In this document: piece by piece, positions 886-64,000 of the stretch
How positions within the stretch are numbered: the stretch's first letter is position 1
Layout of the letters: each line of letters opens with the position of its first letter
DNA from: Tubulanus polymorphus
Taxonomy: Eukaryota > Animalia > Nemertea
NCBI RefSeq assembly: GCF_964204645.1
Contig: NC_134028.1
Coordinates: 25,602,345 to 25,666,344, forward strand
Direction: 5' to 3'
Length of the DNA: 64,000 bases
Translations under genes and position numbers: made by a program
Notes under the pieces: generated by a model
Seen by the model: the letters and a program-made list of their open reading frames with translations, nothing else
Told to the model about the DNA's origin: nothing
Databases searched by the model: none

Positions 886-3800
886 ATGATCGCAATTCAG
901 GTAGGTGATCAAATATTATATATTTCTATCAACAGAACAGTTACTATGACAACTTTTGAAAGTCATGTGACATATTAAGGGTATTTTTGATTATTGAAAA
1001 TGCACATTTCGACGCATATTAGCAATTCAGCCATCTATAGCATTTGAAATTTGCAGATGGGTTAGATGCATTTTACAGCATTCTAAAGTGGAAATTTAAA
1101 TGACAAATAATAGAAGAAAGGTCTTTAAGATTCCATGTAATAAGGCAGGAAAAAGTGTTCGTTCAGAAAAGGGCAACTCAAAACATTCAAACAGTCTTGT
1201 ACAAAGCCCACAAGAATCTGTGCCTGTGTTATGTTTTTTTTCATTATGCACTTGAAGATGATTCTTTTTTTGCATAAATGAAACGTCTTCAAGGAGAAAG
1301 TTCTTTTTTGAAAATGCTTCAAATAGGATTCGTGCCCTGCCTTAGTACAGGGAACAGAATCACAGAAAATGTTCGATTAATTTTTCTCGTCCTTCCACTT
1401 GCATAGGTATTTCAAAACCTACTGAGTTCATGCTGCAGTTACATGAGATTTCAGTAGTAAACAGGACTTTTTAACAATTTCCAAATATTATTTCTATTAA
1501 TAAAATGTTAATTTTGAAAGCGAATTAACAGCCTGCATACAATATCATTAAATTTCTGTAAAAAATTGAAAATACATTATCCCAGATATTCATCATCAAA
1601 CGAATTAGAATTTCTCTTAAATCTATGTTACTGTTGAGCATAGCGATCGGATTCCAACCGTTTTGGATCAAAACTTTTTTTGAAGAAAAAGCACTATAAA
1701 TCTAGTTTATTGTCGAGACATAACCAAAGGTATGTGGAGCAAAAATCCATCAGCGAATGAGACATTCGGACAAGACTCTGTTTTATGGGGCTTTTATCAG
1801 AAAACGTTATATCAATAATAATCAGTTAATGCACTTCTGGCGGTCATCAATCTCGATCGCGACTATGTATCGTACTTTCAAGGTTCGTCCTTCCTTCCAA
1901 TAACAACGGGTAACAATTCATGAATAAACATAACCATGATTGATTTCATCGTCGTCGTCATCGACAGCTCGAAACGGCTGAAAGTTTGTCGAAACCGAAC
2001 AAAAGACAACGTCATGAAATATTACTGTCGCTTTTCACTGTGAATTCGACGGCGAGATGAAACCTGGTTTCTATATCGCGATATTGATTACATAGACGCG
2101 CGTATTGTTGCGAAATTTACGTTAATAATTCAGTCGATTACGACAGTGAATTAGAATTCATCGGTAAATGAAATAGATAGCGGCGCAATCATAGGTGCGC
2201 AACGCTTCCGTATAAAGTGAAGCCAAAGAAATTTTAGTTCGAAACTAAAGCCGTGATTACGAGGAGACAATTTTGCCCGGATTAGGCCCAGGATTCAAGT
2301 GCCTCATTAGAGAGCGCGTTCATACATGAACCACTGGCCTGATTTGGCAACTATAAGAACAGTTTTTCCAAGCCAAATTGGCTCAGGCCAAAAATGTTCT
2401 CGTGATCCCGACTTATGTTCAGTTTGTAGCAATCAGGCTGCGACAAGTCAGCACTTTCTAAACTTTTTAAAGCACTTGCAGGATATCACCAGAAAAATTA
2501 GCACTAATCAGGACCTATCGTAAATTTTTCCAAAAGTAAATACTATTCAGAATTGGTCAGACTCAACCTGTATGGGTAGATCATAAGCGTGAGAAAAAGT
2601 GACCAATTCATACGCACAATTTCAACAACAGGGGTCAGTTGCACAGGCCGGTCTAAGACCATCTTAGTTCTAAAGCCAATCCATACGACCATTTTCTTAA
2701 GATTTAGCTGTAGCTGAAGCTGTATCTGTCCATGACATCCTGATATTTGCACGCGGCACTTATTGAACGCACACGCGGTCACTGCGTCACACAATTCATC
2801 GCGTCTTAACAAAAGTTTCTAGCCGTGGCCTCTTAATCAGGAAACGGGATAATGACAAAAGGTTCAATCAGAAAGTTAATCCTATCGCGGATTCGTAAAG
2901 AGGATTACAGCGCTTTATTTCAGCCTTGTCGACTGATTGATCTCTTCACGCGCGAGACAAAAAGCTGCAGTAGCTACTTCAACTCACAGCCACTTAAAAC
3001 ATGTGTTACACACAACTCACAATCAGCGGTCCTTAGTGCGGGCTGACCACGCATTTTCTTGACTTAATAAACTTTGAGCTGATCACCGGGGTCCAGGGTC
3101 CAGTTCCACAGTTGCGAGTTAAGATTTGACCCTGAGTTAACTCATTGAAAATGAACTAACTTTAACTCAGAGTTAACTCTAACTCAGAACTGTGGAACTG
3201 GGTCCAGTTCTACAGTTCCGAGTTAAGATTTAACTCTGAGTTCAATCATTGAAAATTAACTTACTTTAACTCAGAGTTAACTCTAACTCACAACTGTGGA
3301 ACTGGGTCCAGATATATATTCTAGAAATCAAATCGAATGATTGTCCAAAAAAAATTACTTGCGATAGCAAAAGTAAGCACTTTTTGAATTTGGTGTGAAA
3401 AGTGATAATTTTTTAAATCCGCTGATGAAATTTTCCTCGTAGTTCTAAGTTTGACTACTATCTACAGAAAACGATTCCCCCCCCCCCGAATAATATGATA
3501 TAATACGCATCCAGAAGATTTATATATCGTTATCTGAAATCTGTCCCCAGACAAAAACCTCGAATACATTCACGAGAAACTATTCAGCAGAATACCTGCA
3601 ATAAAACACTAGATTCTCAGATCACTCGCGAGAGATTAAAGCGCTCACATATCAACCTTCCTATATCGAGGGGTCGTCACTTGGCATTTACAGATAACAT
3701 CTTAACGCACCAAATGGACCTCTCAATCATAAAAATATCATGAATACTAAATGACATTTGTCAATAGTTAATCGTTAAAAGGTAATGGCCACGGATGTGA

Positions 3801-6800
3801 GGGAGAGGGAGAGTTAGAGGGAGAGGGGGAGAGGGAGGGAGAGAGGGAGGGAGATAGGGAGAGAGAGGGAGAATGGGAGAGGGAGAGAGGGGGGAGAGGG
3901 AGAAAGGGAGGGAGAAAGGGGGAGAGAGGGAGAGGAAGAGAGAGAGAGGGAGAGAGAGAGAGAGAGAGGGAGATAGGGAGAGAGGGGGCGAGAGAGAGGG
4001 AGATAGGGAGAGAGAGGTGTAGCATGTGCTAATCCTGCGGCTGCTGTAACGCGAGCATCAACATCATCCCTACAGATCCGTCATCCCTGGATATATCAGG
4101 AGTTTGACTGAAAAGATTTCAAGGAAGCTCTGCATCGCTTTCAAAGCCTAATTACTATGGACTCCTCCTAAATCGGCACTTGCATATTTTGGTAGACTGG
4201 TAATTATGTGCTTTTGTAAGCAAATCTTTATCCTATACATTACCTAAACTCAGGCCTCAAACCGCCTCATTGGGTAAAAGATTCCACGTGCCAACTAACT
4301 GTACTGATTATGGAGTAGTTTACTTACAAACAAGACAACAATTTTCAATTGCCTACTTCTCAAAATTGAAGGAGTTCCAGGCATCTTTAAAAGCATTTTC
4401 CGTTCAAAAGGAGTTTCTAAGGATTGAAGGAGTCGTAGGGACCGTGATAGAGGTCTACGTCAACGCGAGAATCAATCTCGCTCGCTCACGCACGGCGACT
4501 AGATTCGAGAAAATCTGATTAACAATCGGCCAGTCGTCGGTAACGATTTCAATCGATCGTAACCGAATTCTCGGTCGGTCGAAAATTAAACGATTCACAA
4601 TTCGACGACGCGCTTAATTTCATACATGCATAATTCATCGGGGAAACTTCGTCGCTGGTTTATATTCACTAATTGGCCGAGACGCACGTTTTTCGTACGA
4701 ACGTCGATATTTTTTTGCGACTTTGATGATCGGAATAATAAAATTCATCGACGTCTCGACGAGAGGACCGCAGCGACTTCAAAGCTAATCAGGGATGTGT
4801 TCGCATACGTCGCGATGTACCTATAAACAACAAGACATCGTCATACGCGAGAAATACGGTTCACGCAGCGTTCTGCGCGTCGAGATCAAGCGATTTCGAG
4901 AACCTTTCGTACCTAGTGAAATAATCATTAATGATATTGACGGCGTTGTCGCCTTCGGGCGCGACTCATTATTAATCACCGATTAATACGTAACGAGCAA
5001 GAATCGATCGTAAGCCGGTCGTCTGAGCGTCGCGCAAACATCACTTAAACGACTGAGTCAGATACGATAACATTTCTATCAGAAACCTGCGCGTGAAGTC
5101 ATCACAGAGGCCGATCCAGGCTGGAAGAGGGGGTTCACCTCATATATGAAGAGGGCACTTTTCAGTCAAAACGGGTGCCTAAATGTACCTATAATTTGAC
5201 AATTTAGGTACTTTTTATGCACTTTTAGAGCCTATTGGATTAAGATCAGTAAGCAGCGGATAAGAAGCCGATATCAAGCGCATTTTCAGGGCGCCTGGTC
5301 AGAAAAGGGGAAGTTGAACGAGCCTCTCGATCTGCGACTGCATTTGGGAGACGTGCGCTTTGGACGTTTGAACCCATAGTATGGGATTGTTTTCCCCAAC
5401 CCCTCTGTGAGACTGACCCTCACATCTCATCTCATGACGTCTATCACCTGAGCGCTTTTCTACTAGTTACAAGCCACTACACAAAATATGGGTCATTCAG
5501 ATTCAAATTCAACTACTGCTGAGCAGAAATTGAATTATATCAAATGAGTTTTTTAACCGACACCCTGGTGTGACCTGATCCGACTGTTTAATCCTCACAC
5601 ATGATTTACCACTAATGGCAGACGACCAACCGAGGAACACTCCTGAGAGCACGAAGAGATTATCGAGATTATGAGACGAAACGATGAATCCAACACCAGA
5701 ACATTTATCAACACCCTATAAAATACAGCAGCGAAACATACATCACATCTCTAACAGAGCATTCATTCTCAACTTACGAATCTCATCTTGGACACGAATT
5801 CAATTCAAAATTCCGCAACACAAACACATATCACAGGCGTCTGCTGCCGATAATTGGCAAGAATCATATCGTAATCAGCCTAATAAGATGTCAAATACAC
5901 AATAACAAATTGCTAGTGAAGAGCACTGCAAACTAGCTAATGATAAAACCTAGATTTAAGCTCCTCAATCATAGATATTGGCAGCTAATTAACAAGATTC
6001 ATTTCACGACGAAAAATAGATTTAGCGAAATACCCGATGACGGACGCCGGGTGCTACAGACACGTCGCCTGTTACAACAATATTTCAAAACATCGAAAAT
6101 AATTGGATATTTCTAAATATGGTAGGGCGCCCACTTTGATTTGATTTTTCTCTGACTATTACCCGACATGCCGGTGTTTTCCCCGACTTGATCTGTTAAG
6201 ACACCGTGAAACACTCTGTGGAAACTAATTTTAAACACAATCTAGCAATCTCAATCAATTTCCCAGATCTTCGGCTTTCTTTTACAAAATTCCCTCATTT
6301 CCAGGTAAGAACCCAGCCTGTACATCCTCTACCTCAAGTCCTTCTCATGGGGGCGACTTAAAGGAAATGTTTTTGCGGATTAGTTCAAACGAATGGAAAT
6401 CAAAGGAAAAATATTTTCATAATGACTCATCCTTCAAGCAGAACAATGAGAAAATTCTCTTCTAAATGCTTGGTTTCAAACATTCCAGGGTCGCTACACA
6501 CTGGCTGGATATAAGAAGTGTCCGTATCTCTTTCATATTCCAATTACTGTAGTGAACTCCTAAAACAGTTTATCTAGTTAAACTGGTGGTTTTGTAAGCA
6601 ATCATTATCCTTTACACTACTTAAAGCCCCTTTGAAAGCATTTACATAAAGTTTCCAGAGTTTTTGAGGAATGAAAGAGTCGTAGGGACCCTACATGAAA
6701 ATTAATTTTCTACGTTTTATTTCTATTTTCAGACAGGAGTTGGGTTGTTGTGCGTGCTGTGTGTTGCGACATCACAAGCCCTAGCCTTCTCTCATTCCGC

Positions 6801-8082
6801 TAACGACGTTCTGACAAACGAACGCGGCACGAACAAAATCGGAAAAGATAAATGCGAATCGGACAAATGTAAATGTTTCCAAGGACCGATGGGACAGCCG
6901 GGGAATCACGGCATGCCCGGTTTACCGGGGACGAGAGGAGATGACGGAAAACATGGTAGCAAAGGAGAGAAAGGAGAGGCCGGACCAATAGGTCCACCAG
7001 GTAAATTCACATCTTCATGATTCATGGCTGGACTGGGTTCCTATAGATCAGAGTCCATAATTCCCCAACATTTCCATCGTTCATTCTCGACCTAGATAAA
7101 AGGAGTTTTAAGAAAAAAAAATTTCAAGGAAGCGTCCGTTTGACTTCCATAAACTCCTCCTAAATCGGTACTGTTTATCATTACTGTTTACCATTAATTT
7201 TGGTGGTTTTGTAAACAAATTTTTATCCTTCGCACTACCAAAACTCAAGTTCTAATTTGGTAACAACCTACCCGGTAATTGGGTTAAGAGAAAATCCTGG
7301 TCCCAATGGAAGCAGTTTAGGCGTAATCTACTGTACAACTACAAACATTTCTAATCGTCTATTTCTTAAAATTGATGGAGTTTTAAAGGAATTCCAGGTA
7401 TTTCTGCTCGAATTAAAAGAGTTACAAGCTCCTATTAAAGCATTTTCAATTTTAAATAGTTCAAGAAATCAAGCAGTCGTTCTGTGTTCCAAACATTCGA
7501 AAACTCGTTCTTGACCGTTGAATCTTTTTCTATTCAGGTGAATTGGGTCTCGCCGGAAACCGAGGTAAGAGAGGTGTTAAGGGCGAGCGAGGAGAGCAGG
7601 GAGAACGTGGAATCATGGGAGAACGCGGCGAACCGGGATTCCCCGGTTTAGACGGACAGCGCGGCGCTAAAGGCGACCCGGGTACGAACATACTCAACAA
7701 GATCGCGTTCTCGGCGAGTCGCAGCAAGAAACTCGGACCCGTGTTACAGAACACGATCATCGTGTTCGAGAACGTGCACACGAACATCGGCGACGGTTTC
7801 GACGTCTACACGTCGCACTTCGTGTGCAGACGCAACGGAACGTACGTGTTCATCGCGCACATACTCGGCCAGGAGAAACAGGACGCAGAGGCGTGGATCG
7901 TCGTCAACAATCAACACAAAGTACCGCTACACGGCGACGCCCGCGCCGGATACGGAACCGGAAGCAACACGATCATCTTACATCTGAATCTCGACGATCA
8001 CGTTTGGATCGAACTGAGCAAGAATACGGCCATTTTTTCCGATTACACAACGTTTTCCGGTTTTCTCTTATTTCCCGATTAA
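886..8082 (+). CDS. Secreted collagen-like + C1q domain protein (C1q/TNF-related, CTRP-like); exons 886-900, 6733-7000, 7538-8082
   Basis: ATG ATC GCA ATT CAG|gtaggt (phase 0) joins ttttcag|ACA GGA GTT to give a signal peptide [23 protein letters not shown]. Gly-X-Y repeats run across a phase-1 intron (7001-7537). The C-terminal gC1q domain has [44 protein letters not shown] near 8754 and 8767. Exon 1 is an inference. Confidence 0.88.
3097..3308. mobile_element. Head-to-tail dimer of a ~108-bp palindromic MITE (GGTCCAGTTCCACAG termini)
   Basis: Terminal inverted repeats ggtccagttccacagtt...aactgtggaactgg; two copies share a terminus; near-identical copies at 16683-16790 and 16833-16940. Confidence 0.85.
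3798..4017. repeat. Imperfect (GA)n polypurine tract
   Basis: About 220 bp of almost only G/A; explains the spurious ORF 3768-4025. Confidence 0.9.
4110..4445. repeat. Degenerate copy of a dispersed repeat (related segments at ~6580-6695 and ~7120-7480; its end matches the reverse complement of the MITE at 20284)
   Basis: Shared blocks tttcaaggaagc, actcctcctaaatcgg, ttgtaagcaa(a)tc.ttatcct and gagtcgtagggacc. Confidence 0.6.
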
Positions 8083-9290
8083 ATCGAATTCCGATCGATA
8101 CCGAACACCGAGCGAGATCGTCGACCTTAACGGGGGGTGGAACTAGGAATTTTGAACAGAGACCTAAACATCCGAGGTCTTGTTGTATACAGCTACTTGG
8201 TACATGACCACGAGCGTGAAGCCTCTTACGTCCTCCCTCGAGAAAATTCAAAAAAAAAGATCATTTATTGAGCATCTAGAACGTTTCTAGAACCTGTGAC
8301 TGGCAAATGTTTGCCACTGTATGTGTAACTTTCTTAAGCCAGGTTGTGAAAATGTCATCGTGGCAGAAGAAACCCGGCCTGCTTTCCCCCACCTAGATCC
8401 ACCCCTGCTTAATCATACCTAACAAATTTTATGAAAATATTTGCATTTCAGAGCCTGAAAATCCTCTTTAAAATGAACCAATTTCACTACATATTGGAAT
8501 CAATCCAAACATCAGAATGGCAAATGAGTGAATTATTGCGCCATCAAGTGTACACCGCCGGTAGCTCAACAAGATATTAGCGAAGCAATTCTAGAAATCT
8601 CTTCTAGCAAAGCCCTGAGAATTTGTGTAAATATTGTAAATACAATCAATTCAGTACGAATAGTAGTTAAACTCTCGTGTTATAGTAATAAGTAATCTAT
8701 ATAAGTACCGTATAATAGTTTAATGCACTTATAGTACATGTCTATGTTGTAATAATAAATGTTGCAATAAAATGTCTGATCCTAAGGTCTTCGTTAATCA
8801 ATCAACTCCGTAAGTCGTATTGGACAATGTAACAAACCTTTGTGACTAACTTAGGCTACAAGATGTATATAAGTCTGATAATAAATACAACTTGGATGTG
8901 ACAGGGTGGCCTCTGGCATGCAGGTTGTTTTCCCTGACTTGAACTGATAAGAATCCAATTAATTAACACAGTCAAATATGTAAAACATAGACGGAGACTG
9001 TTTGATTTCACACGCAATCTAGCTATCTCAACAAATTTCCCTGATTATTAGCTTTTCTTGACAAAATTCCAACTTTTCAACAACAAAAAAATTCCCCATC
9101 TTTTCCTTGTTTGACCGATTCTAATTTTAATGCATTTTTCCAACGGGAAAAAATCAGACTACAACTAGCGGTAGTTATGTGATGACACAAGTTTGACTGC
9201 ATTCAGGTCTAAATCCAAGACTTCATTTTAATACTCGCCGATGACAAACAAATTGAAATATATACAACATTAAATAAACTAATCACAAAC

Positions 9291-12262
9291 CTATTTTTCG
9301 TTGGTTTCTTTTCTTTGTTTTCCGGTGGACTTTTGATCTCTTCTTTGACTTTAACCGACGATTCAGAATCTCCTTTCTTCGAGGGCTTTTTAGCGACATT
9401 TTTAGGAGCTGTTGAAACGGAAATACCGAGTAAAATTATACAACTCGAAACGCTGTTTATCGAAAAAACATCGTACTTTTTATGAAAACATTTCCACAAT
9501 TTGGAGAAGCAGTTCATTTACTCTGCCATTATGGGACTGTAAACCATCGATAATAACAATAAGCCGAGAATTGGGAAATTGTCCACCCTCGACATTTCAA
9601 TAATTTTTGAAGAAATACATCCAAAAAGACGCAAATTCCAAGAGGATGAATGCCAATTTAGGGACATTCGAATTACTTCTGTGTTGCCCTCGATGAGAAG
9701 GTAGGAATATCCAGACCTATGAGACCTCTGACCACAGTAAGTCCCTGTAGGATGAACACATATTATAATTATGCCAATTTCAATCCACACTGAATCCACA
9801 CACATGTATAAATGGCCTCTTAAACTCTTTATCCATATACATATATCAAATCAGCCAACGTATGAATCCGAGAAATATCCATCAACCCTCATGTATGTTT
9901 TACTAATCATTAAAGGTTAGTAGTGTCTCATGATGTATAGTATTCACCTGCCCTGTGATTCTCTGGTGCTAGTAGTCGTCTAGTTATATCACTACCACAC
10001 AGAAAATAACAGGACACATGTTAGAGTGAAGAATTCCCGAGCGCGGGCGTCATTGATAATACGACTGCAAACACTGGTATCATTTGGTGCTAGCAGTTCG
10101 TATCGAAACTGACGCCAGCACGCGAATGATACCAGGATCTGCAATCAACAATCTCTAATCCTTCATCGCCGAGTCTTAAATTCGCAGGAAGGTTGTTATT
10201 TTCTGTAGCGAGCCCTGGTGTCATCTGGTGCTAGACATTCCTAACACGAATCCAGCACTCGGATACTACCAGGACGCGATACGAATTATCTGCAAAAACC
10301 TGTAAGATCCACTCGCAACGAATCATCAATAAAAATAGCAATTATTTCTTGTTTTACTCACCGAAAAAACTGTTCACTGCAGCAGATTCAACTTTAGGTT
10401 CTGAAATGAAGTTAGGTCCATGTATAACTAACACAGCAGACTCGCCATCTATCACATAATTACTGAACTAATAATAATACCTAGTTTAACGCTGTCCGTT
10501 TTCACTTTTTTCTTTAAATCGACAGGATTTTCATCAGTTTCCATAACGTTCTCGGACTTTACGGCGGGGGACTCGGATTTAGGGCAGACTTCAGCGGAGT
10601 CATTCTCCTCAGCGGTATCATCAGCCAGTTTAGCGACTCCGAAACTATTATCGTGGTCGTTCTCTTCAGTTTCATCATCCGTACGACTCTTCTTTAAGGG
10701 TTGCGCCAGCGGAGAAGTGAGTTTGTCTTGTTTTCGTTTGTTAGGCGTCGGTGTACCGTAACCACAAGATTTCCTAGCTGTATGAAATCAGATTTTTTTA
10801 TTTACCAAAAACAAAGTCCAAGAGACTGATTCTGTAGCATTTGAATGGGACCAAGTGATAGGTATCTTACTGATCAGGGAACCCAAAATTCTTGAAACCT
10901 ACTAGCTAGCTGATCCCGCACACCTGATCAGATGAGGATCCCCAGTTCGAAACCTCTCACCATTTGATATTAATTTTTGATAAATACAAATTTACTCTTA
11001 AATTTTTGAAGTCACGAGATATCTTCAGTGGAGACTGATTCTGCTCAAGAGGTTCATTGTGCTGTTCATCACCAACAAGAACAAGATTTTTTTAATTCCC
11101 CCGATTTTCAAATAGAGTTAGAATTACCGAATCTGTGAGAACCTTAAGAGATATTTACCAGTTTTACGCAATGGCGGAAGAGGTGTTGAGGGAGTGTTCG
11201 GCTCAGATTTAGAGACAGGACCTTTCATTGCGGACAGCGGAGTCTTCTCCTAAGAAAAAAATTCTTCATTATGTAAACACTGAGAAAGTTATGGGTTGAC
11301 CAGTTCATTCTCCATACTTATGAATGAGATTTTAAATTTTCTATAACTTTTCCATTGCCAGAAAGAAAAACATACAACATTTCCACAAATTTCCAGGGCC
11401 TACAGGGAAAACTTCCCACTTCCCAAAACCTGCTAGAACCCTGATTTGAGATGTGAAATGAAGTTGCAGCTGATGCTGTCTGTCAGATGCGCGCATCATT
11501 AACAAGGCACATCAAAGCAGGCTGTGATATGATAGAATATGGAAACATTTCACAGCCACTGTGATGTCCATGATAATGATCAGACGATGAAGAATGTTGT
11601 TAGATGTTGATCGGGTTGATCGGGTGACGAACTCTGGTGAAGAAATTTATGTGAGAAAATGTAGGAACAATAAATCCCTGCTTTTTGTTGATCAGAAAAA
11701 CCTGTCTGAAATATCAAGGTAGCATATTAGACCTCATTAACAACAAATAAATTAATTGATTACCTGTTTTTTCGAAGAATTGTTGTCTTGTTGAGGAGTT
11801 TTGAATGGGCTTTTCGTTTTCGGTTTGGGAGTCTTAATCTCCTCGGGCTTCTCTTCGCTTTTATCATCATTTTCTTCCTCTTCATCACTACTTTCAATTA
11901 TTCGACGACTCTTTTTTTTCGAAGTCGACTTCTTCACCGGCGAGTCTAACTCAGCTCTAGGAGGGCTGGCTGCTTGTTTTGACTTGTTACTTTTCCTTAT
12001 CATAAATAAAGAGTGCGAAATTCTATGAGCAACGTGAACTACCTTAGCACTTGATACTAAGCGGTGTAAAGACAGACTACACACTTACGGTTTATCGCTC
12101 TTGTTTTCATCCAAATTACGATTTTTATCTTCTCTTTTCGGCGCAAAGAACGACCTTTAATATCAGATATATAACCAGGTCGCGTTAATAGAGCCACTTA
12201 ACCTGAAATAAGACCGAAAATCGACAATAATATCCTACTCACATAATGGATGGTTGCGCCAT
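9291..12262 (-). CDS. LIG1: DNA ligase I, N-terminal regulatory region; exons 12262-12243, 12154-12089, 11995-11764, 11249-11159, 10777-10481, 10400-10362, 9408-9291; gene continues to the left of the window
   Basis: Phase-consistent GT-AG exons translate MAQPSIMSFFAPKRE..., matching the LIG1 PIP box (human MQRSIMSFF). They also give RRIIESSDEE, PLRKTARKS (human PKRRTARKQ) and NSFFAPK...VKEE (human SSFFTPRK...VKEE), which precedes the DNA-binding domain. Confidence 0.85.
9949..10016 (-). ncRNA. pre-miRNA, miR-29 seed family; predicted mature 3p UAGCACCAGAGAAUCACAGGGC (9971-9950)
   Basis: Hairpin UGUCCUGUUAUUUUCUG...CAGAGAAUCACAGGGCA with G-U pairs on the minus strand; mature starts with U and has the AGCACCA seed. 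Confidence 0.75.
10066..10143 (-). ncRNA. pre-miRNA, miR-29 seed family; predicted mature 3p UAGCACCAAAUGAUACCAGUGU (10092-10071)
   Basis: Long stem CUGGUAUCAUUCGCGUGCUGGC / GCUAGCACCAAAUGAUACCAG with a basal extension UGCAGAU/GUUUGCA; AGCACCA seed. Confidence 0.8.
10205..10282 (-). ncRNA. pre-miRNA, miR-29 seed family; predicted mature 3p UAGCACCAGAUGACACCAGGGC (10233-10212)
   Basis: Stem GUCCUGGUAGUAUCCGAGUGCUGGA / UCUAGCACCAGAUGACACCAGGGC with a basal extension; AGCACCA seed. Confidence 0.8.
11495..11580 (-). ncRNA. mir-2: pre-miRNA, miR-2 family; mature 3p UAUCACAGCCUGCUUUGAUGUGC (11529-11507)
   Basis: Two mismatches to canonical miR-2a UAUCACAGCCAGCUUUGAUGAGC; star arm GACAUCACAGUGGCUGUGAAAUG and an extended basal stem AUCAUUA/UAAUGAU; lies in LIG1 intron 3 on the same strand as the host. 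Confidence 0.92.
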
Positions 12263-12375
12263 TTTCGCGCCAGAAAATTATCGATTCACGCGTTACGTCA
12301 TCGCAAGAACACTAGGAGGCAGCACATGACGGTCTGTCTCTTTGATCCAGCGCTAGGAGGCAGCACGTGACGGTC
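12262..12375 (-). promoter_or_regulatory. LIG1 promoter: E2F site abutting the ATG, ACGCGT/CRE-like element, and a 23-bp direct repeat with CTCF-like and E-box motifs
   Basis: ttttcgcgccagaaa (TTTSSCGC) at 12262-12276; acgcgttacgtca at ~12288-12300; ctaggaggcagcacRtgacggtc twice (~12312 and ~12353). Confidence 0.6.
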
Positions 12376-15965: not shown

Positions 15966-18900
15966 ATGATGCCGGGCCTTTTTGAAAAGCCGTTACCAGT
16001 AACAAGTGGTAAACCAATCCATACTAAAGTCGTCAGACATCATAGATCTGATTTCCTTATGCGAGAACAGGTAGGCTAGGCTAGAAATAATAGTAGTTAG
16101 TTACCTAATCGTTGGTGGTAAGCTTTTTATAATCGGATGGGCTTATACTAACCTTTTGGTTTGTGAAAATATCCGATCGTGAAACTAAACCGCAGTCAGG
16201 TTACTGACTAGAAATAATGGCAGCTTTTTCAACACCAGAGAAAATAAAAGTGTCTCAAGGGTGAGAATAGGGTCCTGGGGCCGGTTGCTCAAAAGTTGGT
16301 TTGAGTTAACCAGTGGATAGTTGATATGGTGACAATTGAAATTTCATTGTTACTATGGTATTTAACGGCCGGTTATCTTCAACCAACTTTTGAGCAACTG
16401 GCCCCTGGGGCCCAGTTTCACGAAAAGGATTAAGGCCTAAATCAATTTCAGATAAACTGAATTAATGAAGAAATAAAATCGATTTAAGGGTTTAAAACAT
16501 TTTTGTGAAACTCGGCCCAGATGCGTCATAATAGGCTATCAGTGATAAAACAGTTAACGTTCCATCAGTTGTTTCAATGATCATAGCTCCAGTGCCATGG
16601 GCTAGTACTCAGGTGCTTGTGTGTGCGAACACCATTCCAATTTTCATGGTTTTATCACTGTGAATTTTCCGGAAGTAATCCGGGTCCAGTTCCACAGTTG
16701 TGAGTTAAGATTTGACTCGAGTTAACTCATTGAAAATGAACTAACTTTAACTCAGAGTTAACTCTAACTCACAACTGTGGAACTGGGTCCGGAGTATTGG
16801 TACTGTAGACACAACATATTTGTATCAACCTGGATCCAGTTCCACAGTTGTGAGTTAGAGTTAACTCTGAGTTAAAATTAGTTCATTTTCAATGTTTTAA
16901 CCCAGGGTCAAATCTTAACTCACGACTGTGGAACTGGACCCTGCTGTTTATTGAGCTATTTCATTTTTCAATCAGATCCGTGAAGTGACGGAAGCTCAAG
17001 ATGCACTTCAATCGGCTTTGGATGAACTGGAGAAATTTAGCCGCGATTCTGAAGAATATGCAAAACAACTGCTTATCGTGAAAGAACAGAAATATCTTGT
17101 GGACGAATTGACGATAGTTCTTCTGGTGGGTTTCATCAATAACTACTGCTGCGAAAATGATTTCTTTTCTTTGTTCATTTCAGTTTTCTAATATTTTTAC
17201 GTTTTCAGGTTGTTGATAAATTGAATAACGAGTTGTTTTACGCGCGAGAAAACTTACGCAAAGTGCTGAAATCAGGGGAAAATGTTTACGGGGCGCGTAA
17301 AAGAGTCGTGTGGTTGGAGGGTCGAATGGAACAAATTGTAATCCATAAAGCAAGAAATGTAAGTATATTAATTCCCTTTTTTAAGGTCAATATGATATTT
17401 GTAATTATTAAAAAGAGTAATGAATGGTTTTGGGCATGTGTGTGTCGATTTGTGACTGCTTGCTAATGGTCACAAAATATGGGCATGTTGGTTTGGTGCG
17501 ATGGTTTGTGACTGGGCTGTGTCAGTCACAAAGGAAGTGTATGTCACTTTCATCCTAGGAGAGATGGTCGCATCGCAGAAAGCAGAATATGTGCAACTTG
17601 ATGCGACTGGCATTGCCAGCTGTTGCAAGAGGACGTAGGTTGACAGGTCTTTGCGATGTGACTGTCTCTGATGGTTGCAGAGAATTGATCGCAACAAGTC
17701 ACTGGAAGTCGTGAGGCTTTAGTTCATATCATTGCATGTAAAAATGGTCTTTTAATCGATTACAGGAATTATTAGAAGGTAGAGTCAGTTCAGAATCATC
17801 TGCATCATTCAAAGTGGAATCAACTATTGACAGCGAGGAGGAAACTCAACTGGAGAAACATGTCATAATCGATGTTGATGAGAAACAGGTTACATCTGTT
17901 GGCAGTGATAACGGTAGTGATGATATAAGCATTGCAGACGGAACTGATGTAAAGGATGCTGAAGCTGAAGAGGAGGACAAAATTGAAGATGTTGATGAGG
18001 ATAAACGTGAGGCTGGTGCTGAAGAGGACAAAGTCGAGGCTACCACTGAAGAAGATGATATAACTGAGGGTGTAGATGAGGAAGTACAGTCGAAGGCTAG
18101 CAGTAAAGATGACGAGCCAGAAATAGGAATCAGTGATGATGAAGAACAGAACAAAGAATCTGTGATCGATGAAACGTTAGTTGATGATGATAAATCAAAC
18201 GCTTCAACTAACGGTGAACAAGCATTTCTTACTGAAGTTGCCGAATCTAATGACGCTAAATTGAGGTCGAGATCAGTAACTGTGAAATCACCGGATACAG
18301 AAGGTTTGTATCGCCGGATTTAATTTCAATTTCCCTTTATCCTTTGAGTTGTGAATATAATTTCATGTTGTTCTGTGCATTTTATAGATTTGGCTGATTT
18401 ATACTGGAAATCTGAGCATCATCGCTATGAGTATGGCGACCATGCACAACCACTCTGTGATCTCGATCATCTCTCCTATCATCAAGTAGGATTAGCAATT
18501 CCCGGGACATTCGTTTCGAAAAGTATGTATTTAAAGGTTCTTGGAAAATGTTTCAGTAGGATTTTCAATAACTGGTTCTAAACTCATTCAATTCTAGTCG
18601 AACAACAGGACATTAATCTTCCCTGGAGACCAAGCCGAAAAGGCAGTGTACAAGACATTCATGTAAGTATTGAAGGATTTATTTGTTGGCATTCCTCAAA
18701 AAAGCCATACCAGAACTTCATCCAAATTTCCTACATTGAAAATGTAAGAGTGGTTTTCGACACTGATCTTAACTTTGTCAATTTGTTTCTTTTTTAGAAA
18801 ATTGCTCTCGATAAATTGTCGATGCGAGTGCACAAAATGTATAATAGTTTGTACAGCGCTGCTATGTTATCAGTCGATCCTCATTTCATGGATAAAGCTG

Positions 18901-24296: not shown

Positions 24297-25535
24297 AGAA
24301 ATAGTAACCTTGACGTACTTGAGACTTTTCTGTGTTGTATATCCGCGCGATTTATCTGTTATTTATTATAGAATATTCTATTTTCTAAGTGTATTCATAC
24401 GTATTTTACGTCTGATTGTAACTCATTATTTTGGAGACTATTTTGCCCTATGAGATTTTGTGATATAAATATACATTAGTTTTACCTAGTGAACACGTTT
24501 TTATTTTTTGCTGTTTTTATTTTATGAATGAATAAATTTGAATATATAAATATTTCCATTAATCTTTTTTTTCTCGTGACGGATATCATTTATTCCACTT
24601 TATATACACATGTGAAGATACACTTTCGAGACGTCATCACGGTACGAATTGACTGCTTAGACACGATGAGAGCAGGTGCTGCAGCACGAGGACTCGTCAC
24701 ATATAAGCTGGGTCGAAGACAAAAGCACTAGTATCCAAACATACATTCAAAGATTGGATGGTAGAGTAGAGCTTTAGTTTTGGACCCCAGCTGCATTTGA
24801 CTAGTCCATGTGGTTCAATTTCCAACAAAATTCGGTAAGTTCGACCGCCGATCGCACGATTAGTCTGTACTTCGAATTCCGATTTCAAAATGAAACCCCC
24901 TGTTTCGCTCCCGGCAGGTGCGGTGGGTTATATGCGGGACACTAAATTAAATCATATCGAGTAAAATCTACCAATCAAATAAATAACAGGGTCAATTGCT
25001 ATCTTAATAAAAAATACCTATGGAATAAATTTGTATTTGAATTAGTTGCCCAATTACTCTCACTACAAAACTAAGAAGATAATAAAGTCACGCAATTATC
25101 ATTATCAGGTTGACATCGTATATATATAAGTATTTATCGCATGTCTGCTTATTATGTGTGTCAGCTGTTAGGCTTCGCCAGTTATATCCACAGAGTCTAT
25201 ACCGTATACGCATAGCGATCCTTGTTAAAGTGAGTCATATAAGTAGTAAGTATGTTTGTGAGCATCAGTTTTACGCATTGCCATCCTATCATTTTTTACT
25301 AGATTTGAACTTGGAGTAATTTACTCAATTATCATGTCCAGATAGTTACTCTTGTTGAAATCATCACCAAGCGGAATCTCACCGCGTCGAGGTGGAGGAT
25401 GGTCTTGGGGTTTTCTTTCGAGATATCACGCTGTCGCATTAGTCACTGGGTTTAAAATTGTCAATGATACTTTCGATTGTCATCGCTATTTGGCTATTTG
25501 CTGATAAATATGATGTTTACATCTTTTCAGTCAAA

Positions 25536-26012
25536 ATGATCCAGGCTCCATATTCGTCGTTTAAGACAATGCCCGATGGGTCATCGTCACACTTTGCAAC
25601 ATCGTTCATTCCCGCGGGGACGGTCATCCTTAACCAAACCGGTAACACATCTCAGAAACACGGCACCGTGCACTCGATTCAAGTCACCCCGGACCTTCAT
25701 GTCGATACTCTCGCTCCGTTACGGTTTACGAACCATTCCTGTAACGCGAATAGCCGCATAGTTATAGAAACCACGCCCGAAATCAGCATCAAGTTAATCG
25801 CCCTCCGTGATATCAACGAAGGGCAAGCGGTCACATACCCTTACTATACTTCCGAGTATAAGATGGTCGCTCCTTTCGATTGCCAATGCGGTCATGGAAA
25901 ATGTCTGGGGAAAGTTCAAGGCTACTATTTCTTAGAAGATAAATCGATGGTTCCTGATACGTTGCTGTCTTCTTGCGTGGTTACATTACGTGACCAAGAA
26001 AGTCGGAAGTGA
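25536..26012 (+). CDS. Small SET + post-SET domain protein (putative lysine methyltransferase), paralog 1
   Basis: RFTNHSCNANS, LIALRDINEGQAVTYPY and post-SET FDCQCGHGKCLG. The ATG follows the acceptor tcttttcag|tcaaa; TATA at ~25120, UTR donor gtgagt at ~25230, AATAAA at ~26020 and ~26085. Confidence 0.88.
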   Translation: MIQAPYSSFKTMPDGSSSHFATSFIPAGTVILNQTGNTSQKHGTVHSIQVTPDLHVDTLAPLRFTNHSCNANSRIVIETTPEISIKLIALRDINEGQAVTYPYYTSEYKMVAPFDCQCGHGKCLGKVQGYYFLEDKSMVPDTLLSSCVVTLRDQESRK

Positions 26013-28134
26013 TTCCTTGTAATAAATATCAAACGAGATTGAATGATGTGTTTAAAATGTTTACTATAGATATGAAGTAACTTCAATAAAAAAAAGATTG
26101 AAACGAAGAAAGCGTTTTTATTTTAATCGTATGTCCATCTAAATGGGTAAAGGTGAAGATAGATCTTAAAAGAGAGATTCCACAAGGAGAGGATGACATG
26201 TAATGAAGGCAACATACTGAAGCATACTCGGCGAACTTCGTAGCTAGTCGGAACTTATAATCGAACGCACTATAGTTCGGTTGTAACGCATTTCACAGTG
26301 TCGGTCATAGGTCTACCGTGTTCAATCCCGTGGTCGACTATTTCCGGACTAAATTACAAAATATTGAATGAAAAACAGTTGCAATTGTTAACTTGTTTTC
26401 TTCATGCTCGGATCCCTAGGCATAGATTCACTGAGCAATATACGTAGAGAAAATGGCCTGACCAAATCGAAGGACAGGCGGAGGTCATGTATTGATTGAC
26501 CTTTGGACAAATTCGCGAGTTCGACTTTATACTGAGAAAGAAATATGGAACGTGAGATTATTGTTACACGTATATTTATTTACCTATATTCGTTTTGGAC
26601 ACATTTTGCGGTTTAATGTCGAGTGTATGGCAAAGATCAACACATTCGTTCTTATATTTTTCCAACATGTTTGTTCAAGAATAAAAATAATCTTCTGCCT
26701 TATTGCACTCTGTATCGAAATTATCTCCCGTCTTTGTGGTCTAATATCTTTTAAGGTTAGACAATTGATTTCTTTAAACAGCGTTGGCAAATCGCCTGAC
26801 GAATCCGTGAAAGGATATATAGTCCGCAAGAGTTGCCAAAAATGCAAATGATGCAGACTTTCTGGTTCACAATAGAAACCGTCCATGAAATGAAAAGTGC
26901 AACTTTTTAATGATATGATATGATATATACCAGCAATTAAAAGGAATACAAAATTACGTTAGGAATACATGGAACATGACATGATTGATGATAGGGACCT
27001 GAACAGAGCCATAAAGGTTGTACACTAACTAGACCGTTCAGGCCCCTAGAAAAAGTTTAATGATAAGTAATAACGATAACAACTCTTTTGTCTTTTTTTA
27101 AAGATTTTAAAGATTTTATGAAAAATATTTATAGACTGAAAAAAGATTGGAAAAAGATAGCGATTTTCTACTCGTAAAACTAGTTTTACATATCGAAGCG
27201 ACCTGAAGAGGAATACTTTTTGAATCTGAATGTTCGATCGTATGATTAATGTATCGACCGGTACTCCACGTGACCTTTCCAGATGGAAAAATACTAAACC
27301 CTCTACAGACGAGTGTTTCAGAACTCGATTCCAGAACTTATTGACATTTCGGCTGGGTATTCTCCGATAACGATCAGGTCATAGTGCTAAAGGCTACAGA
27401 GTAAAGGTTGACAACTGTGCGACCTCATCAACTATAAATACCGTATCGTAGCTTATAACTTTACACATTTACTGCTGAGCGATCGCCTTCGTCACCATCC
27501 AGCACGGAAAATATTTCACTGGTAGGAAATCCATTTCTTTACTTTAATTTCACATACAAATCAAATTGAATGCACAATGCGTACTGAATCAATTCAAATT
27601 AACAAACTTATTTACGACTAATTTCATTTCATCAAAAATGATTCTGAAATTCACCAAATTAATTGATAAGTCGATTAAGGAGATACATATCTATTCAGAA
27701 ATAAATCAACAGTAATATTCTACTCTATACATTTTCGAAGGTTTCTTGAATTCAATTCATCGCAAATTTTAATAAAGATTCTACTTCCCTAAAATCAACT
27801 GAGTTTCCATTATTTCACTAATTAGATACAGTTCCTTTTAATCAAATTTATATGATCATACACCCCTTGAATAAACTGTATATATACGACGTATTCTGGA
27901 TAAATGTTATATTATATAGACCTTCGTGGTCTGAAGCAAATAGATAAATGAATGATAAATGAATGAAATGAACAAAAAATAATATAATGATTACGTACGG
28001 ATATCTCAAAGTATGATTTACTACGGAAATTGAATGTATGCATATATGCAAAACTCGAAGCTTAGATAATTCAGACTACAGACTATAATAGACTAGATAT
28101 ATATATGCTATCCTTTTATTTTTCAGACGTAAAA

Positions 28135-28626
28135 ATGAACGGCGTGCTTCCAACCACCAAGCTTTCAAAGGCTGTTAAACGCGATGATGATTCGTACGGA
28201 CACATTGCGACGCGTTTCATTAAAAAAGATGAGTTGATTTGCAGCGTTCCGTACAACAAGACGCAGTCGCACGCTACCAAATATTCCGTTCAGATCGGTG
28301 TAAACGAACATTTTGATTGCCCGTCGCCGCTCATGTATACCAATCACGCATGTGTCCCCAGCGCCAGAATCGATTTGAATCGAACGCCGAATAGTCTGGA
28401 CCTCATGGCGACGCGCGACATACCGGTAGGCGACGAAATTACGTTTTGCTACTTGACGACCGAATACAAAATGGCGACGCCGTTTCTTTGCGGCTGCGGC
28501 CACGACGAATGCCACGGAAAGATCCAAGGTTACTACCACGCCAAAAACAAATCGCAATTACCAGACGATCATATTTCTCCGGCCGTTAAAGAATTAGCTC
28601 GAAACATAATTTGCAATGACCAATAA
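28135..28626 (+). CDS. Small SET + post-SET domain protein, paralog 2
   Basis: MYTNHACVPSA, LMATRDIPVGDEITFCY and FLCGCGHDECHG. The ATG follows the acceptor tttttcag|acgtaaaa; TATAAATA at ~27433 and donor gtagga at ~27522. Confidence 0.88.
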   Translation: MNGVLPTTKLSKAVKRDDDSYGHIATRFIKKDELICSVPYNKTQSHATKYSVQIGVNEHFDCPSPLMYTNHACVPSARIDLNRTPNSLDLMATRDIPVGDEITFCYLTTEYKMATPFLCGCGHDECHGKIQGYYHAKNKSQLPDDHISPAVKELARNIICNDQ

Positions 28627-57490: not shown

Positions 57491-57688
57491 GTACTATGAG
57501 ACGGGTTCGATAAGGCCCGGTGTTATCGGTGGTTCGAAACCTAAAGTGGCCACGCCCAATGTTGTAGAGGCCATTCTTAAATATAAAGCTGAAAATCCTA
57601 CAATGTTTGCCTGGGAGATTCGCGATATGCTTCTCACCGAAGGCGTCTGTTTACAAGACAATGTTCCCAGCGTCAGTTCCATAAACCG
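57491..57688 (+). CDS. Pax2/5/8: Pax2/5/8 paired-domain exon 2, copy A (linker + RED subdomain); missed by the ORF track
   Basis: tttttgcag|G TAC TAT...AAC CG|gtaaga; 198 nt, open; [66 protein letters not shown]. Confidence 0.92.
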
Positions 57689-57746
57689 GTAAGAATGTTT
57701 TACCTACATGTTTTTCGCTAACAACAATATTAACCGTGGTTTTCAG

Positions 57747-57944
57747 GTATTACGAAACCGGTACTGTGAAACCGGGCGTGATCGGTGGTTCGAAACCGAA
57801 AGTAGCCACCCCTAAAGTCGTCGACGCGATATGCACGTACAAACGAGAGAATCCAACTATGTTCGCATGGGAAATAAGGGATAGGTTACTGGCCGAAGGG
57901 GTCTGTGACCAGGAAAACGTGCCTAGCGTCAGTTCAATAAATAG
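57747..57944 (+). CDS. Pax2/5/8: Pax2/5/8 paired-domain exon 2, copy B
   Basis: ttttcag|G TAT TAC...AAT AG|gtaaga; 198 nt; [66 protein letters not shown]. Confidence 0.95.
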
Positions 57945-60386
57945 GTAAGAACACGTGTATATGTCGTATCAGTGTCCGTTATTAGCTTTTTTGGCTGTAG
58001 CCTTTTTTTTTAAACTTAAATCATTTCGAAATGAAAATGTTAGAATAGTTTAGAATCGTCCCACGGCTAGTAACCTAACCGTTATGTCCACTGCCCCGAC
58101 CTTAGGTCCGCGTTTTATACGACATATATTGTTTCAGAATAGCAACATATCGTCCGTCGTCAGTGTAAATATGCTGGCTAATTGTAACTTTGAGACAAAG
58201 ATAGATATTCTAAAAGATGCACGCGGGCTCAACAATATCGATCCCCGGCCCGTATAAGATTGCTCAGGACATAGAAACCACTTGACTATTGTCAACACAC
58301 GTGTCCCGTATCAGCGTGGCCACTGGTCATCCACGAACTGGTCAACTTGCCGACCGATTTTATCTAGACATCACACGGAAATTCGCGGTGAATAAAGTTT
58401 TATCTCCGACCACCAGAGCACAGCAGCATTTGAAGATGTTATGATTGATCGATAACGCCTTCGGGCATTTATTTCAACCGGACTCCGAATATAGATATGA
58501 TTTTGGAATAATAGCCTACTGACATGTCTTATTTAATTATCGACTCGTTCTCGGTGGTTTTTATTAATTGATGGCCTATCGGTCGCATCTACTAGCGTTT
58601 AAAAAAAAGTGAATGCGATCCCGGGCTGCTCTTTGTCTTGTCTCTTTCGAGAATAGACAGACTACACGATGGTATCAGTAAACGTAGAAAGGCCGCGCGT
58701 GTCCCTACGATTTTATGAGCTCGAATTCATTTATGTCACTGTCAACACGTTCAGTGAAATCGCCGACTGCGCCGAGATATTTTAAAGACATCCATAAAAT
58801 CATCTGAATCGCGATACGCTGTTCTTTCTCATCGACGAAGAGAAAGGAAGTAATTTTAAAGAAATTGTGTGTATACAATGCGCGCGCAAGTCAAACAGAC
58901 GACATTTCAGCGCGTGTTCGTCTGCTGAAATGACTTCCGGTGGCGCCGGTGCTCCTGGCGGGCCCACGCGATGTTTCTATTTATTACAACGACAGAAATT
59001 GTATCAAAAAATAACGACGACAATTTAAATGTCGCGCACTCAAACGAATTACGCAGCTGGCTTCCGCAGTGGTTAAAACGATGAACAGAATGAATATCAT
59101 GAAAAATATTTACGAACGGACTATGATCTTTTATTGTTTGAATTTTTTTTGAATTGAGACGTAAAATGATCGGATCCGCGTGCGGAAAAATTGCTCAAAA
59201 TTCTTCCGTTTTTTTTTTTTAATTCGAACGGCAACCTCGATTCTTTTGAACAATGGACATTGGATAATCAGAACTCGTGCTTTCTTTAATGACAGTTCGT
59301 TCGCTGTATATTTGGCCATTTTCACTTCACAATAGAAAACGCGTTATGTCCATCCGACCAGAAATATCGTGTTTAATGAAGCGAGATGTTCGTCTGAAAC
59401 TCGGCATCTGTGAGAATCCAGTCACTTCATCAGAAATGACCGTTCTTCGCTAAAATACGCAGATTCCGTTTCCAATTAAAAGTCAACACTGCATGAATTC
59501 TGGCTCGTTATAATTCACTATTAATTCAATCAGACTCGTATAACTCGTCGCCGACGAAAATATGTCGTTAGAAGTTTCTCCGTCGTGTCGTGGGCTTCGG
59601 CTGACATCTTTTCTTACCGTCTTTTTCCCGACGGTTGACGAAGATTGCCGATAGAATAATACGATGTGACGGCGATGATTTGTTTAATTGAATTTGAGGG
59701 TAGGAATTAAGACGTCAGCACTATTGAGCGTTAATGTTATAAGCCTAAGGCGTTGATATTGAGGCCGACTATACCCAGCACCCAGCCGGTTCACGTGAAA
59801 TTTAATACAAGATGTTCCGATTTTAAAGTCATCAAAGTAACATTTTGGACAATGAAAACTAGCGCAAACCAGCTATTACGCGCGAGCGCTGTCAGACGGG
59901 CATGTCATCGGGAATTTTCTCGAGAGAAAATCTTAATGGCTTCAATTTTTGAAATTTAATTACACGGTCAGATAGCCGGGGAAAATGTGTTTTGAGTTGA
60001 TGGCTTCATCTGCCACGAGTTAAAATCCGCAGTCGTTTTAATTATCGTATTTGAAACGCGAATATTCAATAGGAATTTGTATTGGATTTTGTCCGTTTTA
60101 TACTTTCAAATTTGTGATGTTTTTGATCATGAATTTCGTGAGGTTCGCGAGGCACAATGCGTCCCACGGTTCTAGTCGCGCCCTCTTGCACACCTGTCTA
60201 TATCATGTTACGCGATAAAGGGGAAATTGTTAAATGAAATATGAATGATGAAATTTAAAACTTTTTTTAATACTCACCTTTCCTAACATACTAACTATGA
60301 AAAGGTCACGATAGGCGTTATGAAAAATGTCGTCTTTCTGTTATGGCAAAATGAAAGAAAAAATGTTTCGATTTTTGTAATTTCAG

Positions 60387-60664
60387 AATCGTGCGAAATA
60401 AGGCTGCCGAGAAGGCCAAACATCAGCATCAACATCAGCAGCAACAACACACGCCGGGTCAACATCCAGGTCCGGTGCACAGTCCGAACAGCGGGGCCGT
60501 GTTAAACCCTCACACGCCGCCGCCGGAACATTTACTATCGAGACAAGGGTCGTATTCGATCAGCGGGATATTAGGTATCCCTCATCCGAACGGCGCCGCG
60601 CACACCCCGCAACAAGCGCACACCGACATAAACAGCAATAAACGAAAAAGAGAACCCGATGTTG
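60387..60664 (+). CDS. Pax2/5/8: Pax2/5/8 exon with the end of the paired domain, the octapeptide and a basic NLS-like motif
   Basis: IVRNKAAEKAK...GSYSISGILGIP (octapeptide/eh1)...NKRKRE; phases 2 and 1 are consistent with the neighbouring exons. Confidence 0.92.
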
Positions 60665-63191: not shown

Positions 63192-63586
63192 TACCGAACG
63201 GTGACCACGAAGCTAACAATAATGAACAAAGACCCGATTTAGAGGTAGGTCTGAAATCATGCTTTCGAACTTGTCCTCGAAGATGAAATTAGATTTTCTA
63301 ATAATTTTTTGTTATTTTGTAAAGGGCAAAGAAGGTGATTTATACGGACCTTTGAGTATGTGGTATAAAAAAGCGAAACCGGAACCGGAAATGCAATCGG
63401 CATCGATGGGAAATGTGTACTCTATGCAATATCAACAGTACATACCAGTATCAGCGACAACCGCAGAACCTCAGAAAAACAATTCCGATTATAACATGCA
63501 AAACCAAATAGTCATGACGTCACAGTCTAACGGCGCATCAGACGGACAAAATACAAACAACAGCGGCCATTACAGTCCAACCATGG
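63192..63586 (+). CDS. Pax2/5/8: Pax2/5/8 downstream exons 63192-63244 and 63325-63586; the gene continues past the window
   Basis: Phase-consistent VPNGDHEANNNEQRPDLE|GKEGDLYGPLSMWYKKAKPEP...HYSPTM G|gtaagt. Confidence 0.75.
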
Positions 63587-64000
63587 GTAAGTTGATTTAA
63601 TCTTATTTTTACAATTTTGCTTCATTTCATGGCTTAAAAAGTGCTTCAGTTTATGATTGATTTATTTATTTTGTAAAATGTATTTGTATTCAGTCGGTAT
63701 AGATAAAGTTGTAACTCTAACACGAAACGTGGCTCGGTATACATCTCTCACTTATTCGTTAGTGCAATCGTGTATTCAAATTCTCGGTCTACTATATTAC
63801 CATACAATATATGCCCGAGATGACATTTCGTTTTAAGATCACCAAAACCTGATAAACGAGCCAATTTCCTGATCATATAATCTGAATTAATGTATACCAT
63901 ACCGAGCCGAGTTCAACGCTATCAACTAATTTCTTTTCTTCACCGGTTTCCGCCCACTTGCAACGACGGAGGCGACGCGTTCTTCTCATCTAAACGCGAG

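Follow-up and report, generated by a model that had tools for sequence, protein, structure and literature searches.

Three hairpins in an intron of DNA ligase 1 are likely divergent MIR-29 genes with a K-box mir-2 partner in the ribbon worm Tubulanus polymorphus

The 64-kb stretch of Tubulanus polymorphus DNA analyzed here (the window) likely holds three divergent MIR-29 genes in an intron of the DNA ligase 1 gene, alongside a K-box partner. We number the hairpins H1, H2 and H3 in order of transcription. In each of these minus-strand hairpins UAGCACCA opens the 3′ arm, and no further copy of the 8-mer occurs in the 64 kb. The original prediction of three 22-nt mature arms with a common seed holds at this locus, each of them forming the 3′ arm of its own hairpin; the triplet is thus confirmed, but its intronic position in DNA ligase 1 and a mir-2 hairpin in the same gene had been overlooked.

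The three occurrences of TAGCACCA in the 64-kb window are all on the minus strand, at 9964–9971 (H3), 10085–10092 (H2) and 10226–10233 (H1). A count of three is unremarkable alone, at least as many being found in 4 of 100 shuffles; it is the clustering that is striking, with about 2e-6 triplets within 270 nt expected by a first-order estimate. Six 8-mers in the window recur three times at such spacing, two of them from the hairpin cluster and the remaining four from purine-rich simple sequence and an inverted-repeat element. With the predicted Dicer site assumed, AGCACCA occupies positions 2–8 of the 3p arm in all three hairpins. Among the seven 7-nt seed sites in the window, a U start together with at least 19 paired bases is found only in H1–H3, and the other four pair 0–13 bases.

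Cut sites that assume a 22-nt mature arm and 2-nt overhangs give predicted minus-strand pre-miRNAs of 62 nt for H1 (10212–10273; star 10251–10273, loop 17 nt, mature 3p 10212–10233), 66 nt for H2 (10071–10136; star 10114–10136, loop 21 nt, mature 3p 10071–10092) and 64 nt for H3, the most diverged copy (9950–10013; star 9991–10013, loop 19 nt, mature 3p 9950–9971). The three seed copies are spaced by 121 and 141 nt. Each 23-nt star arm is complementary to its own mature arm, as originally described, with 19–20 of the 22 mature bases paired; in the same test, 9 of 762 random U-starting 22-mers attain 19 pairs. The stars of all three carry a one-base bulge in the same column. A canonical animal microRNA gene has a minimum of about 16 pairs. 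The 22-nt mature arms, 23-nt stars, loops of 17, 21 and 19 nt and 19–20 pairs fall within the MirGeneDB geometry of 20–26-nt arms, loops of at least 8 nt and an imperfect stem, and the norms given in PMC11701709 are arms of 22 ± 1 and about 19 pairs. Minus-strand folding gives z of −5.6, −7.3 and −4.2, and none of 200 shuffles folds as well for any of the hairpins. Products of the plus strand, where the folds are weaker (z −0.9, −5.8 and −2.9), were rejected. When the whole cluster is folded the three hairpins remain, with 17–18 expected mature-star pairs each, as independent folds in the ensemble. A first U and a weaker-paired 5′ end of the mature arm are seen in all three, by a margin of just 0.9 kcal/mol in H2.

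Microprocessor motifs, examined by eye, are patchy. H1 has CNNC at +17, C at −5 and a mismatch at −6/+4; H2 has a basal UG at −14, C at −5 and a purine at +5; and H3 has G-U-G at +3 to +5 and CNNC at +15. The basal UG at −14 and the CNNC at +17 are thus each present in one of three hairpins, and an apical UGU is at the loop start of none of them. Such motifs are described as optional for microRNA genes in PMC11701709, and their patchiness suggests that output may vary between the copies. The H3 star arm and the 3′ flank of H1 are connected by a perfect 13-nt inverted repeat (9999–10011 and 10194–10206, 182 nt apart); the local hairpins outcompete this pairing in the folding ensemble, and the repeat could be chance, a relic or an alternative fold.

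Comparison of the three copies confines their similarity to the arms. The mature arms agree pairwise at 15–18 of 22 letters and the star arms at 14–18 of 23, H3 and H1 sharing 17 of 22 mature and 15 of 23 star letters. The mature arms do differ after the seed, as had been noted, but they are more alike there than was implied, with 7–10 of 14 post-seed letters shared pairwise. Loops and spacers show no similarity in any of eight pairwise tests (p 0.11–0.97), which bears out the earlier description of them as unrelated and argues that the duplications are old. In a three-way alignment, paired cells make up 88.5%, and both sides have changed in 7 of the 26 pairs, of which three belong to the lower stem and four to the mature/star duplex. 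This count is drawn from only three paralogs and from a structure derived from those same sequences. None of 500 shuffles is as high, and slid structures give 0–2. The covariation among H1–H3 is supportive of selection on structure, not proof of it. Among the difference rows listed for run X2, to which a further 36 belong, the cluster shows three substitutions and one insertion, all in the H1–H2 spacer (10186–10197), and the X2 contig over 9697–10094 carries one difference somewhere along its length; this sparing of the hairpins is a weak sign of constraint on them. Homologous arms, diverged loops and spacers and the doubly changed pairs in these three sequences agree with the original reading of the triplet as old tandem duplicates under selection for structure.

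The host is identified by tblastn mapping and spliced contigs as the 5′ part of a DNA ligase 1 gene (9287–12262, minus strand), whose seven exons encode about residues 1–290 of 967. In order of transcription the exons are 12241–12262, 12089–12152, 11763–11994, 11159–11248, 10481–10777, 10362–10400 and 9287–9408, with ends uncertain by 1–2 nt. Exon 3, 1.5 kb upstream of the triplet, is 100% identical to a T. polymorphus database protein named DNA ligase 1-like (P0001). The best solved match of the host protein is human DNA ligase I, at 918 bits (ligase 3 scores 143 and ligase 4 scores 119). A search with the N-terminal region of the host protein recovers DNA ligases only, with ligase Pfam domains in 21 of 21 hits. 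Six introns with CT..AC ends on the plus strand are missing from contigs of two studies (runs X4 and X5); both runs contain five of the joints, and X4 alone contains the first. The sixth coding intron (9409–10361, minus strand, 953 nt, GT-AG), whose joint 9408/10362 is present in X4 and X5 contigs, contains H1–H3. H1 starts 88 nt past the donor site, and 541 nt separate the triplet from the other splice site. All four hairpins, H1–H3 and mir-2, are on the host-gene strand. A protein-coding reading of the triplet interval was rejected, the interval being spliced out, and so were mirtrons, given these distances of 88 and 541 nt from the splice sites.

The window lacks ligase residues from about 290 to 967, yet the transcript continues, which places intron 7 at more than 9 kb unless the assembly is misjoined at a repeat near 8913–9050. 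A truncated ligase paralog was rejected: an X4 contig of 3399 nt extends beyond exon 7 by about 2530 nt, and the database entry is a full-length protein. A collagen-C1q gene (6706–8082) lies on the opposite strand, within ligase intron 7 unless the assembly is misjoined. The ligase N-terminus bears what we take to be a PCNA-box-like motif and an H3K9-mimic-like motif. A candidate E2F-like site (12263–12270, plus strand), sought after the host was known and with a consensus that we assume for E2F, abuts the ATG at 12262 and is one of six consensus matches in the whole window. A 23-nt direct repeat (22 of 23 identical, 41 nt apart) at 12312–12375, 50–110 nt upstream of the ligase start codon, contains what is presumably an E-box-like core.

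The K-box partner is a mir-2 hairpin at 11503–11571 (minus strand) in DNA ligase 1 intron 3 (11249–11762, from a contig joint), with its mature arm starting at 11529. It scores 61.6 bits against Rfam RF00047 (gathering score 45.5), folds with a z of −6.7 and carries the K-box seed on its 3p arm, which places it in the MIR-2 family. Ancestrally, mir-2 is linked to mir-71 (PMC3384581); in this window the mir-2 hairpin stands outside such a cluster. Neither mir-71 nor a second mir-2 is found in the window at the gathering threshold or by a seed-plus-fold scan, nor at E up to 10 over 4–20 kb. The predicted mir-2 star arm (11546–11566, minus strand) repeats positions 2–8 of the mature arm at the cost of one stem mismatch, so that both arms could carry the K-box seed, given a correct predicted Drosha site. 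Among the rows listed for Capitella in the supplement of PMC8915122, no mir-2 star has the duplicated seed.

H1–H3 are probably MIR-29 homologs by descent rather than products of seed convergence, as judged from sequence likeness. Their nearest Rfam models are mir-29 or mir-83 (RF00074, gathering score 46.7; RF00812, gathering score 44), with the seed in register in these best matches and every score below threshold: H2 reaches 30.5 bits with mir-83 and 27.3 with mir-29, both at E 0.0011 in a 441-nt search, H3 reaches 22.4 bits with mir-29 (E 0.026), and H1 is misaligned to mir-29 at 16.1 bits (E 1.4). Given these scores we file them as divergent family homologs and not as canonical mir-29 or mir-83 orthologs. 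Two read-supported MIR-29 genes of the annelid Capitella teleta, Cte-Mir-29-P1 and Cte-Mir-29-P2, are among the rows listed in the supplement of PMC8915122. Compared by hand, H1 matches Cte-Mir-29-P1 at 17 of 22 letters, H2 matches both Capitella matures at 17 of 22, and H3 matches Cte-Mir-29-P1 at 14 of 22; positions 1–8, 13 and 17–19 are identical in all five. After the seed, H1 and H2 each match Cte-Mir-29-P1 at 9 of 14 letters (binomial p ~0.002 each, by hand and for the best of two references), and H3 matches Capitella at 6 of 14 (p ~0.11, not significant alone). The first six star letters of H1 and H2 are, by hand comparison, those of the read-supported Cte-Mir-29-P2 star, which is also 23 nt. 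This likeness beyond the seed, including the start of the P2 star, argues for common descent and lends support to the predicted cut sites. The arms are also distinct from canonical miR-29, as proposed at the outset, differing from both Capitella matures at 5–10 letters. No canonical miR-29 was found within the 64-kb window, and miR-746 is absent from the Capitella rows listed in PMC8915122. Octopus supplements, in the two of eight places listed, have only Mir-29-P1 rows, without sequences. By position H1–H3 are not orthologs of insect mir-995 or mir-998, their host being DNA ligase 1 and not cdc2c or E2f.

The surroundings include repeats of several kinds. An X1 contig (9183–11033) spans the cluster without differences at a depth of 32.3, like that of the exons, and the repeat at 8913–9050, 400 nt past intron 6, draws more than 100 contigs per run and a depth of about 18,000, contig depth being a rough guide only. 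Like the repeat at 8913–9050, a second one, of about tenfold depth in the ligase intron at 9603–9656, is dispersed. Two related elements of nested inverted repeats, at 3096–3304 and at 16676–16947, the second scoring below threshold on plant MIR models, are probably a miniature transposon family. Farther along the plus strand are two tandem small SET-domain open frames, apparently single-exon (25443–26012 and 28066–28626), and a paired-box gene (57685–63600) whose octapeptide, we assume, resembles that of Pax2/5/8.

These repeats are the starting point for the least likely of the other accounts, to which we give very little credence: that the hairpins are chance folds or miniature-transposon remains and the 8-mer part of a repeat. 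An inverted-repeat element scoring on plant MIR models is present in the window (16676–16947) and a very abundant repeat is close by, but a single X1 contig crosses the cluster at exon-like depth, far from that of the repeat at 8913–9050, and similarity between the copies is confined to the arms. A covariance model of H1–H3 recovers no additional copy, either in the window or in the three ligase loci compared, the next, unrelated hit scoring 17 bits versus 87–88. The dispersed transposon family that the original prediction had named as its possible undoing thus finds no counterpart here, the cluster being at exon depth in X1 and without an extra copy in the window. It is improbable, too, that these are real microRNA genes whose place in LIG1 is incidental, with a promoter of their own or with only one or two copies still processed. 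The patchy processing motifs, the divergence of H3 and the 13-nt inverted repeat, which could compete with folding, would suit that account; against it, all four hairpins follow the host strand, H1 at just 88 nt past the splice donor leaves little room for its own promoter, and H3 retains 20 paired bases and a compensatory change.

Two further accounts accept the genes and differ over their history. It is unlikely, in our view, that the triplet is the sole MIR-29 cluster of the animal, formed from an ancestral P1/P2 pair and one duplicate that moved to the ligase intron and diverged. The two Capitella MIR-29 genes in the rows of PMC8915122 are about 640 nt apart on one strand, so that a tandem MIR-29 cluster is old in Spiralia, and the window is without a canonical miR-29. 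However, the Capitella matures are identical to each other at 20 of 22 letters and conform to the Rfam consensus, while H1–H3 differ from these matures at 5–10 letters, and H1–H3 share derived letters, such as A at position 10, which argues that they duplicated after the split from the canonical sequence. Quite unlikely as well is an old LIG1-intronic arrangement of mir-2 and miR-29 common to many nemerteans or spiralians, perhaps held in MirGeneDB 3.0 as orphan paralogs of Lineus longissimus. The full divergence of loops and spacers makes the duplications old, and MirGeneDB 3.0 does include this nemertean; the name 'Llo-Mir-29' is absent from the supplement of the MirGeneDB 3.0 paper. In Capitella, however, the two matures with the 8-mer among the rows listed in PMC8915122 are both canonical and on scaffold 794, and the mir-2 copies are on scaffolds 933, 876 and 36111, so that linkage is not evident in that annelid.

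Our preferred reading, which we hold with fairly good confidence, is that H1–H3 in intron 6 and mir-2 in intron 3, all on the host strand, are MIR-29-family genes and their partner, transcribed with the ligase in dividing cells. We infer the steps of origin and processing from what is directly observed, namely position, strand, intron splicing, geometry, and homology among the copies and with Capitella. LIG1 is an S-phase, E2F-driven gene. One miR-29 copy would have entered the ligase intron, followed by two tandem duplications old enough for loops and spacers to diverge. The ligase pre-mRNA would carry the hairpins, Drosha would crop them from the intron, and Dicer would cut them for loading of the 3p arm. 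With the common seed present three times, one core set of mRNAs would be silenced at triple dose, and the differing 3′ halves of the matures may tune that silencing. Redundancy has been described for clustered microRNA paralogs, in line with the triple-dose idea (PMC3384581). In flies, according to PMC4109884, mir-11 and mir-998 limit cell death in proliferating cells. By analogy the triplet and the K-box miR-2 might serve as a survival brake and hold down cell death during the S-phase programme, a role we consider doubtful.

A broader interpretation has a somewhat better chance, and we advance it tentatively: the ribbon worm may have independently built in DNA ligase 1 the two-seed module of insect E2f1 type, a K-box miR-2 with a miR-29-seed microRNA, the capture by S-phase genes being convergent, selected and protective of dividing cells. 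If so, a spiralian example would join the insect one, the K-box partner being the same and the replication gene another, and the pairing would recur across protostomes under selection. If the arrangement is species-specific or already in MirGeneDB, it adds three family members in an unstudied genome. The locus also shows microRNA genes of a kind that annotation by Rfam threshold misses. In the literature searched, mostly non-subscription, we found neither miR-29 nor mir-2 reported from a LIG1 intron, and no account of any T. polymorphus microRNAs. Passages of PMC2486268, PMC9820140, PMC12553114, PMC3840308 and bioRxiv 10.1101/2022.06.26.497643 confirm the seed family and add nothing more for the locus. 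A degenerate pattern from the three hairpins had 0 matches in metagenome contigs. Three ligase loci found by a search with the ligase held no miR-29 or mir-2 hairpin, which is no evidence either way, their matches starting at about residue 270–327 with N-terminal introns absent or of unproven coverage.

The closest known systems include the Capitella Mir-29-P1 and -P2 genes, with which H1–H3 share the first 8 letters, a 22-nt 3p mature, the post-seed register, a P2-like star start and a tandem arrangement. The Capitella genes differ in being canonical, two in number and without a linked mir-2 among the rows listed. Others are in insects. According to PMC4238352 (Mohammed et al. 2014), mir-998 shares E2f with the K-box mir-11, mir-995 is located in cdc2c and a copy of mir-279 in POLA2; mir-995 as well as mir-998 is termed an insect-specific transposition, and miR-29-family copies are seen as having moved into insect cell-cycle genes, with related functions predicted. 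The mir-995 and mir-279 cases resemble ours in that an ancient microRNA has a duplicate lodged in an intron of a gene for the cell cycle or for replication, although mir-995 is a single copy with no K-box partner described, and mir-279 belongs to another seed family. The Drosophila mir-11/mir-998 locus in E2f1 goes further, combining as here a K-box (MIR-2 seed) hairpin and a miR-29-seed hairpin in introns of a cell-cycle gene, and its mir-998, like H1–H3, has diverged from the canonical family member. Unlike that locus, the ribbon worm gene is DNA ligase 1 rather than E2F, in a spiralian rather than an insect, with three miR-29-seed copies rather than one and with a K-box hairpin that is a near-canonical mir-2 rather than a mir-11 and lies in a different intron from the triplet.
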